A DNA stretch of 64,000 bases, taken from the sequence record ON210137.1; one strand, given 5' to 3'. A program made the translations under genes and the position numbers. Below the pieces are notes generated by a model. The model saw only the letters and a list, made by a program, of their open reading frames with translations. It made no database searches and was not told the DNA's origin. The stretch is from Escherichia phage EC150. This document shows, in pieces, positions 2,764-16,187 of the stretch (position 1 is the first letter of the stretch; each line of letters begins with the position of its first letter).

Positions 2764-3238
2764 TATGAGTCAAGATTATGTAGCAATGCCTGAAGACTTT
2801 GAAGACCCGCGATTTGCAGAGCATAATCAGGCATTATTCGATGAGTTCATTGACCTTGTTATTCAGGGCCATGACATGCGCGCAGCTTTTGCACTAGTAT
2901 TTGGCATGGAGGTTGCGACCGATAACTACACTGGCCAGCGAGTCCTCTGCACGCAACGCAATCCGTACTACAAGATGCGCTACAAAAAGCGTATGGAAGA
3001 GATGCCATTGAAGGAATTGTGGAGCGTAAAGAGTTCCATCCACAATTTAGTGAAGCTTGTGCGTGATCCAGAAGTCGCGGCGTCAGCCAAGCTTAATGCC
3101 ATTCGTGAACTGAATATCATCTACGGCATCACGATGATTGATGAGAATGGCAATAGTAAAATGGGCCGTTCCATGGACGATTTCTACAAGGATTTTGGAG
3201 AGGCAGCCAAAGAGGGTGAGCAATTCTCCCGCCACTAG
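2764..3238 (+). CDS. hypothetical protein (158 aa)
   Basis: In-frame ATG 2764 (MSQDYVAMPEDFED...) inside track ORF 2570..3238; upstream extension starts at TTG and is low-complexity; start codon overlapped by an ATTTGCACTAT copy. Confidence 0.5.
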
Positions 3239-10157: not shown

Positions 10158-10499
10158 TTAATTTCTTTTGAGAGGAATATGGCGGTTGCTGTCATTATTT
10201 GGTTTAATAATGAGCATAAAAACGATTAGAAAGATGATGGCTGATATACTTAATTCAATCAGCGCGGCTTGAGATATAGATTGATCTTCATGATACTGCT
10301 TTTGCATTTCTGCTTTCTTCTGAGCGCAAACTTCAGGTGATATGTAATCGCCTTTTGAGTTGCCATAATAAATCTCGCCATTCTCAGAAATAAGCCTGCC
10401 GCAAATATCCGTGTCAGCCTTTGCGCTTGACATCATAATAACGGTGCCGATGATAGCGGCAATTGTCCAGATTAGCAGTTGTGATAAGGTATTATTCAT
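10158..10499 (-). CDS. membrane-anchored exported protein (N-terminal signal peptide, C-terminal transmembrane helix)
   Basis: ORF track; hydrophobic N- and C-termini; AAAGAGG Shine-Dalgarno on minus strand. Confidence 0.5.
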   Translation of the reverse strand: MNNTLSQLLIWTIAAIIGTVIMMSSAKADTDICGRLISENGEIYYGNSKGDYISPEVCAQKKAEMQKQYHEDQSISQAALIELSISAIIFLIVFMLIIKPNNDSNRHIPLKRN

Positions 10500-11354: not shown

Positions 11355-11435
11355 ATTACCTCCGGTTTTGAGTTAATATGATTATAATGCAGAATTTCAG
11401 AAAGGCAAACTTTTTGTGAATTTAAATTAAAAAAA

Positions 11436-11456
11436 TGGCCAGAAATAATCTGGCCA
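11436..11456. other. palindromic hairpin TGGCCAG-AAATAAT-CTGGCCA flanked by A-tracts on both sides
   Basis: Read directly; T-tract follows on the minus strand; lies at the boundary between the minus-strand block and terL. Confidence 0.4.
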
Positions 11457-11502
11457 AAAAGATCACCCTTTATCCACTACTAAGCTGGAATCATAATTTT
11501 AC

Positions 11503-11532
11503 TTGATATAGCTGTCTCAAGCAAACTATAAT
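11503..11532 (+). promoter_or_regulatory. putative sigma70 promoter TTGATA-18-TATAAT upstream of terL
   Basis: Hexamers read directly; TATAAT ends 1 nt before ATG 11533, which argues for ATG 11566 as the real start. Confidence 0.4.
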
Positions 11533-11565
11533 ATGAATAAAATATTAACACATAATTGGAAAGTC

Positions 11566-12993
11566 ATGTACCAGTTGAATCCTGCTTTAAGAGAAGTCTG
11601 GAAGACGAAAGCGCGATACAAAGTCATATACGGCGGTCGTGCATCTTCCAAATCGCACGATGCCGCTGGTTTTGCTATTTATTTGGCGGCAAACTTCAAA
11701 TTAAAATTCCTTTGCGTTCGACAATTCCAGAACAAGATTTCTGAATCAGTATATACGCTATTAAAAGACAAAATAGAAATTTCTGATTTCAAAGACGAGT
11801 TCAACTTATTAAAGAACTCTATTGAACACAAAAGAACAAAATCTGAATTCTTATTTTACGGTATCGCACGCAACGTTGATGAAATCAAATCAACAGAAGG
11901 CGTTGATGTTCTTTGGCTTGAAGAAGCGCATGCGCTGACTGAAGAGCAGTGGGACATCATTGAGCCGACAATTCGTAAGGAAGGGTCCGAAATATGGATC
12001 ATATTTAACCCTGATGAAGAGGCTGATTTTGTCTACCAGAACTTTGTCATGCGACCGCCGAAGAATGCCATCGTTAAGAAGATTAACTGGCAAGACAACC
12101 CATTCTTGTCGCAAACAATGCTGGATGTTATCGCTGGCATGTATGAGCGCGACCCGAAAAAGGCAGAACACGTTTATGGCGGAGTACCGAAGACTGGCGG
12201 CGACAAGTCGGTAATCAACCGTGCATTCGTCAAGGCCGCGCTAAACCTCCACAAACACCCTACGCTGGGATGGAGCTTGTCAGGGTCTAACCGTATAGGC
12301 TTTGACGTGGCGGACGACGGCGACGACTTAAACGCCACAGCATTTGTCACTGGCAACGTATTGCGCGGCATCAAGACATGGGAAGGTCTGGAGGATGAAT
12401 TGCTTAAGTCCGCAAGCGGAGTCTGGAAAGACGCATTGACATTCGGCGCATCAATCACCTATGACGCCATCGGTGTTGGTGCATTTGCTGGTTCAAAATT
12501 TGATGAGCTTAATGAGTGTGCAATCCATGAAAATCCAACATTCCCAAGAATCGAATTTAATGCGTTCAACGCGCAAGGTGCTGTTGATGATCCTGATGAC
12601 GTTTTCCTTGAGTTACCACACGTTGAAATACTCAATAAAGACCATTTCGCAAACATAAAAGCGCAAAAATGGACTGAGATTGCCGAACGATTCAGAAAGA
12701 CATATGAGTATGCGACAGGGCAAGCCGTATATCCGACCGATGAGTTGATTTCCATCGACACAGACGGCATCCCAGAACTTGGTATTCCCGCTTGGTCTGC
12801 GGAAGAGATTGAGACGTTTCTTTTTGAGATGTCAGCGCCGCGCAAAGATACGTCTGTTCTTGGTAAGTTCAAAGTTGAATCGAAAAAAGATATGGCAAAG
12901 CGTGGAGTCAAATCGCCTAACAAAGCGGACGCAGCAATCATGGCATTGATGAAACCAATTGTTGCAGCATCCGGCTTCTTCTCTAACCTTTAA
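11566..12993 (+). CDS. terL: terminase large subunit
   Basis: Walker A-like YGGRASSKSHD near N-terminus, Walker B-like VLWLEEAH; start of morphogenesis module; GGAAAG Shine-Dalgarno before ATG 11566 (track start 11533 has none). Confidence 0.8.
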   Translation: MYQLNPALREVWKTKARYKVIYGGRASSKSHDAAGFAIYLAANFKLKFLCVRQFQNKISESVYTLLKDKIEISDFKDEFNLLKNSIEHKRTKSEFLFYGIARNVDEIKSTEGVDVLWLEEAHALTEEQWDIIEPTIRKEGSEIWIIFNPDEEADFVYQNFVMRPPKNAIVKKINWQDNPFLSQTMLDVIAGMYERDPKKAEHVYGGVPKTGGDKSVINRAFVKAALNLHKHPTLGWSLSGSNRIGFDVADDGDDLNATAFVTGNVLRGIKTWEGLEDELLKSASGVWKDALTFGASITYDAIGVGAFAGSKFDELNECAIHENPTFPRIEFNAFNAQGAVDDPDDVFLELPHVEILNKDHFANIKAQKWTEIAERFRKTYEYATGQAVYPTDELISIDTDGIPELGIPAWSAEEIETFLFEMSAPRKDTSVLGKFKVESKKDMAKRGVKSPNKADAAIMALMKPIVAASGFFSNL

Positions 12994-12996
12994 CAA

Positions 12997-13236
12997 TTAA
13001 ATCATTCCGTGCTGAAGGTCGAGCTTTCTTGCGGCAAACGACCTGGCACGGAATCGCTTACCCGCCCTTACTGCCTGTCGAATTTTCTTTTGCAAACACT
13101 TACGGTCAAAATCGTTGCGGTCGACGGCTTCGAGTAAATCGCGACGCAGTGCACCCAGTGTCGACTTTTCGGAGACTTCAACGCCCAGCGCGGCTGCAAC
13201 ATCTTTCAAAACATCGAGTTCGGTTAAAGTTCTCAT
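12997..13236 (-). CDS. hypothetical small basic protein (79 aa)
   Basis: ORF track; second gene of an opposite-strand pair between terL and portal. Confidence 0.4.
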   Translation of the reverse strand: MRTLTELDVLKDVAAALGVEVSEKSTLGALRRDLLEAVDRNDFDRKCLQKKIRQAVRAGKRFRARSFAARKLDLQHGMI

Positions 13237-13649
13237 TTGATAATCCCCTTGATGTCTGATTCTGCCATAAAGATTGGAGTGCCGCCGCCAGGAACAATAG
13301 AGCGCGTGACCTTGTCAAACATATCGTTTTCTTCAACTTGAATACGATAAAATTTATTTTTGGATGAAGATGGGCACAATCCCATAAATTTTCCGATGCC
13401 GCGAACGCATTCATCTTCAAAGTATACTGTTTCACCTTGAATGGAGTCGATGTCGTCTACTGGATAGACCTTGCGACCCAATAGCCACTCATCCAAAGTC
13501 GCCTGCAAGACGTTGCGCGCATCTAAAATCCACGGGTCAATAGTAGCACCTTCATATCGCGCAGCAGTGGCCTTTGCCAGTTCTTCATATTCGCATACGT
13601 TAACGACTTCGCCGTTGTGCAAGACGACAAATACAATTGTTGTGCTCAT
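13233..13649 (-). CDS. hypothetical protein (138 aa)
   Basis: ORF track; 4-nt overlap with downstream gene; AT-rich divergent promoter region upstream. Confidence 0.5.
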   Translation of the reverse strand: MSTTIVFVVLHNGEVVNVCEYEELAKATAARYEGATIDPWILDARNVLQATLDEWLLGRKVYPVDDIDSIQGETVYFEDECVRGIGKFMGLCPSSSKNKFYRIQVEENDMFDKVTRSIVPGGGTPIFMAESDIKGIIK

Positions 13650-13744
13650 TTCAATCTCCTTTCGTTTGGTTAACTAAAATATAACTCAAAATGATACAAA
13701 AGCAAAATATTTTATGAACTATTTATGATCACCATACATATCAT

Positions 13745-13773
13745 TTGCTTACAAACACATGAATATTTATAAT
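13745..13773 (+). promoter_or_regulatory. putative sigma70 promoter TTGCTT-17-TATAAT upstream of portal gene
   Basis: Hexamers read directly. Confidence 0.45.
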
Positions 13774-13811
13774 ATAGATTGATTCCCTTTCACTGTCAGG
13801 TGGCGTTAACA

Positions 13812-16187
13812 ATGAAAATTCTTGGCATAAAACTCTGGGAGAAGACGCAACCAGAAGCCGAACCAGCGGAGATGCCGCCAGGCGACCCATTGGCACCGTT
13901 TGAACGCCTTGAAAGGCGCGGCAGCGGTCAACGCTGGGAAAAGACTGAAAGCAATCGACCGACCTTTAAAACGGTTGATGACTTCCCTTTATATGAGCCT
14001 GATATTAATGGCGATGGTGTTGCAATCATAAAAGGTCGTTCAGTCGATTCCGCAACAGTATCCAAAAAGGTTATGGATAATGCCTTAAAGAACATCAGTT
14101 CAGAAGGGCAAGTCAACCCATACACAGTACCTATTCAACTTCAAAACTGGTATTTGTCACAGTCATTCATCGGCTATCAAGCTTGTGCCATCATCGCACA
14201 GCATTGGCTGGTGAACAAGGCATGTTCCATGGTAGGCCGCGATGCGGTCCGTAAAGGTTGGGAAGTCAAATCCAGTTCTGAGTCAGAATTGTCAGTACAG
14301 GCAAGCGAACGCCTAAAGCAAATTGATAAAGAATTTAATATCAAAGAGCACTTAGTTGAAGCCGAACGATTCAAAAATATTTTTGGTATCCGCGTCATCA
14401 TATTTGATGTGCGTAGTGATGACCCAGAATATTACAGCAAGCCTTTTAACATTGATGGTGTGACAAAGGGGTCTTATAAGGGAATCATTCAGGTTGACCC
14501 TTATTGGATGATGCCGTTTCTGACGTCTGAAAACACAGCAGACCCTGCATCACAGCACTTCTATGACCCAGAATATTGGGTAATCAGCGGACAACGTTAT
14601 CATCGCAGCCACCTCATAATCTTGCGCAACGATGAGCCAGCTGATATTCTCAAGCCGACTTATATTTACGGCGGCATTCCTCTGACTCAGCAGATTTATG
14701 AACGCATCTATGCCGCTGAACGTACCGCCAACGAAGCGCCATTGCTGGCGATGTCCAAGCGTACAACGACGCTGCGGACCGACGTTGACAAGGCTATTGC
14801 CAATGAGCGGTCTTTTGCAGAACGTCTGATGATGTGGATCAAGTACCGCGACAACTATGCAGTCAAAGTGCTTGGCCAAAAAGAAGAGATGGACCAGTTT
14901 GACATCAACTTGTCAGACTTCGACAGCATCATCATGAACCAGTACCAGCTTGTGGCCGCAATCGCAAAAGTTCCGTCGACCAAACTGCTTGGGACTTCGC
15001 CAAAAGGCTTTAACGCCACTGGTGAATTCGAGATGGTCAGCTATCACGAAGAGTTGGAAACGTGCCAGCAGCATGACCTGACAAAAATTCTCGACCGCCA
15101 TTACAAAATCCTTCTCAAATCAGAAGGGGTGGATGTCGATGTTAAGGTTGCATGGGAACCAGTTGGCTCACTTACTGCTACTCAACTTGCAGAAATCAAT
15201 GATAAGCGAGCCAACACTGGCAAAACTCTTATTGATGCTGGCGTCATTTCTCCTGATGAAGAGCGCGACCGCATCAAAGACGACAAAAACAGCGGCTACA
15301 ACCGTCTGCCGGAAGACGCAGCAGAAGAAACCCCAGGGATGTCTCCAGAGAATATGGCATTGCTTGGCAAGTCTGCTGGTGAAGTCCTGCAAGGTAAGGC
15401 CGATATTGAACAGGCGAAAGCTGATGTCGTTAAGATGGGCGGCCAGTTCTATAGCGAAACAGGTATTATGCCAGAGGGTGCCGCGCGCGGTGAGTTGGCG
15501 GAAAACCCTGACAAAGCGCCTGTCGAAATCAACATGGACGATACCGATGATGAATCGAGCCATCACATTGATGTCCTAACGCAGTTGAAAGAAGGGCTGG
15601 AGGGTATTGCGGATTACTACCTGAAAGAAGGTCAGGATGTGGATTTTGACCCTCAAAAAGATTCACGGTCGGTGCAACCGTCTACCCTTCCAAGCGTTAA
15701 AGGACACGTAGTCAACTTACGCCACAACGTGGGTAAAATGGACGCAGCATCATTACCTAAGATGAAGTTGCACGGAATGATTCTTGGCATTGAGAATCCG
15801 CGAAACAGCATTCGTAGAGGAAACAGCATTGACGGTGAATGGGCCGTGAAGATGCCGCACCACTACGGATTCATCAAGGGCACCAAGGGCGCAGACGGTG
15901 ATGAAGTCGACTGCTTTGTGGGTCCAAATCTGAAGTCGCCGAAAGTCTTTATTGTGAACCAAAACGATAACTACTCTGGCGAGTTTGATGAACACAAGTG
16001 TATGCTTGGATTCGATTCAGCAGAAGAAGCGAAAGAAGCTTATCAAGCATCATTTGGTAACGGTTGGAACGGCTTCGACTCAATCCACGAATTAGATGTG
16101 AACTCATTCAAGGAGTGGTTGAAGGGTGATTGCTCTCAAGCATACGGAGCACTCAATAATCCTACTAATTCACCGAAGCAAGGTTGA
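13812..16187 (+). CDS. portal protein (putative)
   Basis: About 790 aa ORF just after terL and before a MuF-like head morphogenesis gene; GGTGG Shine-Dalgarno before ATG 13812; track start 13779 is a TTG. Confidence 0.6.
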   Translation: MKILGIKLWEKTQPEAEPAEMPPGDPLAPFERLERRGSGQRWEKTESNRPTFKTVDDFPLYEPDINGDGVAIIKGRSVDSATVSKKVMDNALKNISSEGQVNPYTVPIQLQNWYLSQSFIGYQACAIIAQHWLVNKACSMVGRDAVRKGWEVKSSSESELSVQASERLKQIDKEFNIKEHLVEAERFKNIFGIRVIIFDVRSDDPEYYSKPFNIDGVTKGSYKGIIQVDPYWMMPFLTSENTADPASQHFYDPEYWVISGQRYHRSHLIILRNDEPADILKPTYIYGGIPLTQQIYERIYAAERTANEAPLLAMSKRTTTLRTDVDKAIANERSFAERLMMWIKYRDNYAVKVLGQKEEMDQFDINLSDFDSIIMNQYQLVAAIAKVPSTKLLGTSPKGFNATGEFEMVSYHEELETCQQHDLTKILDRHYKILLKSEGVDVDVKVAWEPVGSLTATQLAEINDKRANTGKTLIDAGVISPDEERDRIKDDKNSGYNRLPEDAAEETPGMSPENMALLGKSAGEVLQGKADIEQAKADVVKMGGQFYSETGIMPEGAARGELAENPDKAPVEINMDDTDDESSHHIDVLTQLKEGLEGIADYYLKEGQDVDFDPQKDSRSVQPSTLPSVKGHVVNLRHNVGKMDAASLPKMKLHGMILGIENPRNSIRRGNSIDGEWAVKMPHHYGFIKGTKGADGDEVDCFVGPNLKSPKVFIVNQNDNYSGEFDEHKCMLGFDSAEEAKEAYQASFGNGWNGFDSIHELDVNSFKEWLKGDCSQAYGALNNPTNSPKQG

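Follow-up and report, generated by a model that had tools for sequence, protein, structure and literature searches.

Two opposite-strand genes between terL and the portal gene

The stretch of DNA analyzed here, hereafter the window, comprises 64,000 nucleotides of Escherichia phage EC150 (sequence record ON210137.1). It belongs to a Wifcevirus, an E. coli myophage, and shows 98.8% nucleotide identity to Wifcevirus genomes. Members of this genus are virulent E. coli/Shigella myophages of ~68 to 72 kb, including WFH, ECML-117, Mansfield, and the BASEL phages Bas98-101. They have been described as distantly related to the Pseudomonas Pbunavirus (PB1-like) phages (bioRxiv 10.1101/2024.09.12.612763). 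An earlier note on the window, made from the letters alone, had placed two minus-strand open reading frames (ORFs) between the large terminase gene (terL) and the portal gene. Their coordinates proved exact: both ORFs, here called genes A and C, start with ATG and overlap by 4 nt (ATGA, positions 13233-13236). The features of the locus, together with the small terminase gene, are as follows.

2765..3238, plus strand: small terminase subunit TerS (PDB 7uxe)
11436..11456, minus strand only: strong predicted intrinsic terminator (8-bp GC-rich stem, run of seven T, dG ~-15 kcal/mol)
11503..11532, plus strand: predicted near-consensus sigma-70-type promoter of terL (TTGATA-18-TATAAT, 11/12 matches)
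11566..12993, plus strand: large terminase gene terL (Pfam Terminase_3, E 3e-37; ORF opens at 11533)
12997..13236, minus strand: gene C (79 aa, 9.0 kDa, pI 10.3)
13233..13649, minus strand: gene A (138 aa, 15.4 kDa, pI 4.6)
13656..13661, minus strand: Shine-Dalgarno sequence of gene A, AAGGAG, 6 nt upstream of the ATG at 13649 (read from the sequence)
13678..13705, minus strand: predicted sigma-70-type promoter of A-C (-35 TTGCTT 13705->13700, 16-nt spacer, -10 TATATT 13683->13678)
13745..13773, plus strand: predicted sigma-70-type promoter of the portal/head operon (-35 TTGCTT 13745-13750, 17-nt spacer, -10 TATAAT 13768-13773)
13812..16187, plus strand: portal protein with C-terminal InPase domain, ATG at 13812 (Phage_portal_3, E 3e-88; InPase PF18823, E 3e-46)

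The portal gene is the divergent neighbor of gene A. For terL, the start codon is probably the one at 11566, since the -10 hexamer of the predicted promoter ends directly before the ATG at 11533; other records annotate a product of 475 aa.

Genes A and C are both present in all Wifcevirus records (28/28), with 94 to 100% amino acid identity, and the 4.9-kb stretch around them is 92 to 99% identical to the 28 Wifcevirus genomes. Pairwise Nei-Gojobori estimates against five diverged genomes gave dN/dS ratios of 0.07 to 0.12 for A and 0.04 to 0.08 for C, at dS values of up to ~1, and of ~0.015 for the flanking terL and portal genes. A and C are real protein-coding genes under purifying selection, constrained somewhat less than the morphogenesis genes. 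The Mansfield record annotates a ribosome binding site that matches the position of the Shine-Dalgarno sequence of gene A, and gene C is preceded by AGGGG upstream of 13236. An Rfam scan and a repeat search of the A/C region yielded nothing beyond chance.

The two ORFs might instead be chance reading frames within a long intergenic spacer, in keeping with the lack of a functional annotation in any record and of a family of known function. Against this stand the low dN/dS ratios at substantial synonymous divergence, the Shine-Dalgarno sequences preceding both genes, the confident AlphaFold2 model of A, and homologues in other genera that retain the gene order at 25 to 55% identity. We consider the probability of this reading negligible; the selection and homology data have effectively refuted it already.

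As the earlier note correctly stated, no small terminase gene adjoins terL. It had suggested that A or C could supply this function, or alternatively the CDS at ~2764..3238. The second guess is the right one: the 157-aa product of 2765..3238, ~8.3 kb from terL, matches 7uxe_A ("Small terminase") over 145 residues at an E value of 1.3e-32. The Mansfield record labels the orthologue as TerS, at a position within the predicted terminal repeat. The first guess fails, as neither A nor C matches terminase families in Pfam, PHROGs, or PDB.

Homologues of A and C and the block shared by PB1-like phages

Gene A encodes a divergent member of PHROG 5124, the gp17 family of Pbunavirus 14-1, which has no functional label. 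On its own, A matches phrog_5124 by hmmscan with an E value of 2e-4; nine of 11 family members match, the best at 1.4e-87. Comparison of the A family with 14-1 gp17 using hhalign gave a probability of 97.6% (E 3.4e-12, 114 columns), and hmmsearch with the family recovered Pbunavirus gp17 relatives at E values of 1e-11 to 2e-12. The family is tiny, with 13 clusters among 5.8 billion proteins in a word-indexed search and four representatives among 1.8 billion in an exhaustive profile search. All clusters come from phage-sized contigs and none is informatively named. An IMG/VR scan for further loci returned four Wifcevirus genomes only.

The position of A is conserved as well. The Pbunavirus homologues, 14-1 gp17 and Cisa gp20c, are the first minus-strand gene beside the portal gene, and a divergently transcribed A adjoins the portal gene as first gene of the block in the window, Mansfield, the Pantoea phages Kyle and PA1, the metagenomic contigs L006-L009, L013, Cisa, and 14-1. 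The family HMM did not find A in MTx or tabernarius, indicating that the gene is not universal in the PB1-like group.

AlphaFold2 modeled A with a pLDDT of 82 from an alignment of nine diverse sequences; a first model from a four-sequence alignment was poor (pLDDT 59) and was discarded. In the model, a beta-beta-alpha-beta domain (residues 1-43) and a helix (47-56) are followed by a five- to six-stranded, generic SH3/KOW/Sm-like barrel (74-137). The residues that are invariant in the family cluster as a GxxVxF..D...RGxG motif. Foldseek searches of the model against PDB and BFVD gave nothing significant outside its own family, and no match was obtained against PDB sequence profiles or the KOW, LSM, and Tudor HMMs. 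The top Pfam hit was CarD_TRCF_RID, at an E value of 0.18 in one of 11 members.

The product of gene C has a split charge distribution, with an acidic N-terminal half (pI 4.5) and a very basic stretch of 35 residues at the C-terminus (pI 12), which contains 12 Lys/Arg and one acidic residue. Homologues of C are encoded by the small gene located after the protease gene in the sister lineages L006, L007, L008, L009, Kyle, and PA1. The family HMM recovers all of these proteins, at identities to C of 65% for L006, 35% for L007, and 31% for Kyle. With the same HMM, no C homologue was detected in Pbunavirus, MTx, or tabernarius, and searches of C against Pfam, PDB profiles, and PHROGs gave no family match. 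By eye, the N-terminal half of C had been considered as a Rho_N/SAP helix-extended-helix, a candidate that was dropped after neither hmmscan nor PDB profiles returned a match.

In every related genus examined, the space from terL to the portal gene is occupied by opposite-strand genes. There are five in Pantoea phage Kyle, five in Pseudomonas phage tabernarius, seven in Serratia phage MTx, and 14 in Pbunavirus 14-1 (minus-strand gp04-gp17), and Pbunavirus Cisa is organized likewise. In L006-L009, Kyle, and PA1 the order is fixed: the portal gene, the divergent gene A, a Trypsin_2 protease gene, the gene for the C-type protein, zero to three variable genes, and the gene for a DUF2786/DUF7168 protein, which converges on terL. 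The protease is a lipoprotein of ~190 to 200 aa, with MKKLILIAALALAGC as the N-terminal lipoprotein signal in L006, and the C-type protein measures 71 to 79 aa. DUF2786 corresponds to 14-1 gp08 and occurs in ~340 phage records, mostly of Pbunavirus. No homologue of the protease or of the DUF2786 protein was found anywhere within the window. A role for A as inhibitor or chaperone of the neighboring protease was also considered and rejected, as A persists without the protease in Pbunavirus and Wifcevirus.

Opposite-strand genes occupy this position in every related genus examined, with homologues of A in Pbunavirus and of both A and C in the sister phages. Comparative gene order therefore indicates that the terL-portal block was already present in the ancestor of the PB1-like group, covering Pbunavirus, Myosmarvirus, Tabernariusvirus, and Kylevirus. 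Judged by gene content, Wifcevirus has the most reduced known version, consisting of A and C only, with the protease and DUF2786 genes apparently lost. In the window, Mansfield, WFH, and 14-1, terL is the lone plus-strand gene with minus-strand genes on both sides. To describe terL as embedded in a minus-strand block is more accurate than to describe A-C as inserted into a terL-portal operon.

These comparisons bear on the interpretation of the pair as a moron-like insertion that interrupts the terL-portal arrangement, as the earlier note had put it. The two opposite-strand genes are real, but synteny with related phages, in which the cassette is longer, does not fit a recent insertion. The pair is fixed in the 28 Wifcevirus records, the GC content of A and C (0.44 to 0.50) is no different from that of the flanks, and the block itself predates the genus. 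A and C are genuine conserved genes, a function-unlabelled remnant that is neither a recent insertion nor the missing packaging gene. Both were already public as hypothetical proteins; their evolutionary placement, the gene loss, the promoters, and the terminator layout are added here.

Predicted promoters and terminators

The intergenic region between A and the portal gene (13650-13811) has a GC content of 0.38, compared to ~0.45. The AT-rich divergent promoter region proposed in the earlier note is borne out by back-to-back sigma-70-type promoters, predicted from sequence and supported by phylogenetic footprinting. When the region was aligned across seven phages whose A proteins are only 25 to 55% identical, the TTG.TT and TATAAT hexamers of the portal promoter were invariant in all seven. 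Both hexamers of the A-C promoter fall in conserved columns of this cross-genus alignment, and the same position reads TTGACT-16-TATAAT in L008 (11/12 matches) and TTGACT-16-TATAGT in L007. In addition, the 14-1 record annotates a sigma-70 promoter equivalent to the Wifcevirus portal promoter, and TTGAxx-18-TATAAT is also found upstream of terL in L006, L007, L008, and Kyle. As the promoters of terL, the portal gene, and A are all of the host (sigma-70) type, promoter type assigns no temporal class to A-C.

At the other end of the pair, C and terL converge, leaving 3 nt between their stop codons; in the sister phages, the final gene of the cassette overlaps the terL stop by 4 to 12 nt. Neither a tool scan nor a custom hairpin-plus-T-run scan found a convincing minus-strand terminator from 12997 to 11456. 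The first strong one past C, at 11456..11436, comes after 1.56 kb antisense to terL and just upstream of the terL promoter. It has no T-run on the other strand, and the WFH and WFC records mark its equivalent as a terminator. The cassette-strand terminator likewise lies beyond terL in three sister lineages (L006, L007, and L008). In Pbunavirus 14-1 it directly follows gp04, before terL.

Judging from the predicted terminators, the A-C transcript probably runs ~1.5 kb antisense to terL. Minus-strand transcription that reaches this terminator must cross terL, from which antisense read-through and mutual interference between A-C and terL transcription would follow. Rho could stop the untranslated antisense RNA earlier. 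An ONT-cappable-seq study lists no antisense RNA species for 14-1, whose terminator precedes terL (PMC10914365).

This layout raises the question of whether the locus acts mainly in cis, with convergent transcription from the A and terL promoters forming an interference switch that times the terminase and with the proteins as secondary passengers. The closely spaced, terminator-free junction of C and terL, the sole strong minus-strand terminator just past terL, the recurrence of this layout in L006, L007, and L008, and the overlap of the last sister cassette gene with the terL stop all point in that direction. However, the clear purifying selection at the protein level on both ORFs signifies that the proteins matter, the 14-1 cassette terminates before terL and so makes interference no general requirement of the group, and in E. 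coli an untranslated antisense RNA would likely be terminated by Rho. We consider a primarily cis-acting role rather unlikely.

Possible functions and comparison with known systems

The explanation we prefer is that A and C are non-structural accessory genes left from the ancestral opposite-strand block. Taken as a whole, established facts and proposed mechanism together, we hold it with moderate confidence. Its factual part is very probable: the conservation of and selection on both genes, their homologies, the loss of the protease and DUF2786 genes, the conserved promoters, and the location of TerS elsewhere. The mechanism taken as a whole, namely, the coupled message, A as a binder, nucleic acid binding by C, and antisense read-through, is tentative and on balance doubtful.

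According to this mechanism, host RNA polymerase would read A and C as one message from the predicted promoter at 13705->13678, with C putatively coupled to A in translation through the ATGA overlap. The acidic protein A, with its modeled alpha/beta domain and KOW/Sm/Tudor-like barrel, may bind a conserved macromolecule of host or phage, either protein or RNA. This suggestion is drawn by analogy, because the Pbunavirus block encodes the RNA polymerase (RNAP) alpha-binding protein gp12. In phage 14-1, host transcription is inhibited by gp12, which binds the RNAP alpha subunit (PMC10914365; PMC6748951), and the 14-1 record locates its gene inside the terL-portal block. C may bind nucleic acid via its Arg/Lys-rich C-terminal tail, as its charge distribution suggests. 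Finally, the transcript would continue into the antisense of terL as described above, with A-C and terL transcription interfering mutually. A literature search turned up neither transcriptome nor functional work on A, C, or 14-1 gp17.

A non-structural role fits published mass spectrometry of vB_Eco4M-7 and ECML-117 preparations, in which A and C went undetected and the adjacent portal protein was detected (PMC7048862; gene tags mapped by us onto A, C, and the portal gene), although this is weak negative evidence. The same result bears on the idea that the pair aids head assembly or DNA packaging, for instance by chaperoning the portal protein or by serving as a second DNA-recognition factor associated with the terminase. 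Such a role would be in line with the location of the genes between terL and the portal gene and would account for the constant pairing of A with the portal gene from Pbunavirus through Wifcevirus; C is also small and basic, as is common for DNA-binding packaging factors. Yet the phage has a bona fide TerS gene at 2765..3238, and neither protein matches a head or packaging family in PHROGs or Pfam. Moreover, MTx and tabernarius lack A and C despite homologous terL and portal genes, the pair is transcribed opposite to the morphogenesis genes, and its products were not seen in virion or lysate preparations. A packaging function is therefore very unlikely.

The earlier note had also suggested that inserts of this kind carry defense, anti-defense, or toxin-antitoxin-like functions. 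A moron-type cassette, for instance with the acidic A as antitoxin or inhibitor and the basic C as toxin, would match the opposite strand, the separate promoter, and the acidic and basic products with their apparent translational coupling. The content of the locus varies between genera, and variable phage loci often hold anti-defense genes; in addition, host immunity encoded by cryptic prophages is reported to have a strong effect on Wifcevirus phages (bioRxiv 10.1101/2024.09.12.612763). Nevertheless, searches of Pfam, NCBIfam, and PADLOC for a toxin or antitoxin family in A or C gave nothing above noise, PADLOC models assigned zero families to the two proteins, and no defense or anti-defense family in these three resources matched either of them. 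The pair is invariant in 28/28 genomes with unremarkable GC content. In Pbunavirus, A is found without a detectable C, and every sister lineage has a protease gene between the two, so they do not form an obligate two-component module; both facts argue against an obligate toxin-antitoxin pair. Retention of A across phages of Pseudomonas, Pantoea, and Escherichia better fits a conserved target than a strain-specific defense. We regard a defense-type cassette as distinctly unlikely.

A bolder version of the preferred explanation would make A an unrecognized host-takeover factor that docks on conserved transcription or RNA machinery (RNAP, Rho, NusG partners, or Hfq), with its mRNA doubling in Wifcevirus and Kylevirus as a 1.5-kb antisense RNA that times the terminase. 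If true, such docking would explain why A has retained the first place in the block across phages of hosts from Pseudomonas to E. coli, but in this full form the proposal is speculative and improbable.

Explaining A and C as a block remnant removes a false lead, since they are neither the missing small terminase nor a fresh defense island, and it gives two hypothetical proteins an evolutionary context, namely, the opposite-strand block that PB1-like phages have in common at the terL-portal position. Therapeutically used Pbunavirus phages hold host-takeover genes in this block. The minimal Wifcevirus version is a convenient system for studying the role of A, a member of the 14-1 gp17 family and the block's most persistent gene, and for testing a regulatory role of convergent transcription across terL. 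With the Wifcevirus phages BASEL Bas98-101 available on E. coli K-12 derivatives, such experiments are tractable.

Among known systems, the KOW/Sm/Tudor barrel proteins (NusG-KOW, LSm/Hfq, CarD/Mfd RID, and Rof/YaeO) may resemble A, at the level of fold only, which does not imply a shared function, and these families have no counterpart to its extra N-terminal alpha/beta domain. Phage morons such as those of lambda and HK97 are alike in having their own promoter (here predicted), a strand opposite to the morphogenesis genes, and dispensability for virion structure. In contrast to morons, A and C are constantly present among close relatives, show no compositional anomaly, lack a flanking terminator of their own, and belong to an arrangement that appears ancestral rather than acquired.

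The Kylevirus-type cassette of Kyle, PA1, and L006-L009 is a closer parallel. Unlike the Wifcevirus locus, it has a Trypsin_2 protease gene between A and C and a DUF2786/DUF7168 gene plus zero to three further genes between C and terL. It shares the first, portal-divergent position of A, the downstream position of C, the conserved promoters, and, in L006-L008, a cassette-strand terminator past terL.

The block of Pbunavirus 14-1 (gp04-gp17) is far longer, with 14 genes (~6.8 kb) versus two (0.65 kb) in Wifcevirus, which is without the gp12/DUF6011, DUF2786, and methyltransferase genes at this locus. The two also differ in that no C homologue was detected in Pbunavirus and that the 14-1 terminator lies before terL, whereas that of Wifcevirus lies beyond it. 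The Pbunavirus block carries host-takeover functions, for example, gp12 (PMC10914365, PMC6748951). Similar to the Wifcevirus locus, it consists of a plus-strand terL, small minus-strand genes, a divergent sigma-70 promoter region, and a plus-strand portal/head operon, and the gene that opens the block, gp17, is remotely homologous to A.

Transcription signals and start codon of terL

Two regulatory elements precede the large terminase gene (terL):

11436-11456, minus strand: strong terminator, active on this strand only, directly upstream of the terL promoter
11503-11532, plus strand: near-consensus predicted terL promoter

Between this terminator and gene C (the 79-aa gene that converges with terL), the minus strand carries no coding sequence, so the terminator can only stop transcription that has already crossed terL antisense. 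The arrangement of the terminator followed by the terL promoter is common to three sister lineages, represented by metagenomic contigs L006, L007, and L008. This layout distinguishes the window from Pbunavirus 14-1, which lacks it.

The longest terL ORF begins at 11533, the start used in the vB_Eco4M-7 and ECML-117 records, and this ATG directly adjoins the predicted promoter's -10 hexamer. Of the two starts, the one at 11566, which yields a product of 475 aa and is used by the WFH, WFC, Mansfield, and BASEL records, is more plausible.

Small terminase gene and additional minus-strand ORFs

The small terminase gene lies about 8.3 kb from terL, and a further minus-strand ORF is found in the region between them:

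2765-3238, plus strand: gene for the small terminase (match to PDB 7uxe, "Small terminase"; E value, 1.3e-32)
10158-10499, minus strand: 113-aa ORF adjoining the tail-fibre gene

For the related phage Mansfield, PhageTerm predicts a direct terminal repeat of 3.7 kb; the small terminase gene is located within it, and two copies per virion genome would therefore be expected. The product of the 113-aa ORF displays, by eye, hydrophobic segments at its N and C termini and hence may be a membrane protein.

In Mansfield, vB_Eco4M-7, and ECML-117, an additional minus-strand gene of 231 nt separates terL from the gene that comes next on the minus strand. When window positions 11355-11565 were compared with L001 (8757-8987) and L017 (4735-4965), this gene was found to be absent from the window; it is also absent from WFH. 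Its product in vB_Eco4M-7 (vB_Eco4M-7_32, 7.8 kDa) scored high in published mass spectrometry (PMC7048862).

Portal-InPase fusion and the protease of sister phages

The portal protein ends in an InPase domain:

15756-16124, plus strand: InPase domain, portal residues about 649-771 (PF18823; E value, 3e-46)

L006 and L008 encode the same portal fusion, as does L013, a relative with gene A (138 aa in the window) in the same position. Elsewhere among the PHROG matches, the domain belongs to giant phage proteins of the DarB-like or polymorphic-toxin type.

In one metagenomic copy of gene A (protein P0008, from a contig of 17.9 kb), the frame shifts after approximately residue 98, resulting in a different 156-aa C terminus; the cause could be a sequencing error, or the copy could be a natural pseudogene.

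The sister phages encode a trypsin-like protease (Trypsin_2, ~190 to 200 aa) between A and C:

L006 5411-6019: protease gene, also present in L007, L008, L009, L002 (KYLE_27, Pantoea phage Kyle), and L003

In L006, the protease start and the A stop overlap by 4 nt, and the protease N terminus is a lipobox signal (MKKLILIAALALAGC). A lipoprotein serine protease is unusual in a phage non-structural block. In contrast to these sister phages, Wifcevirus has lost the protease.
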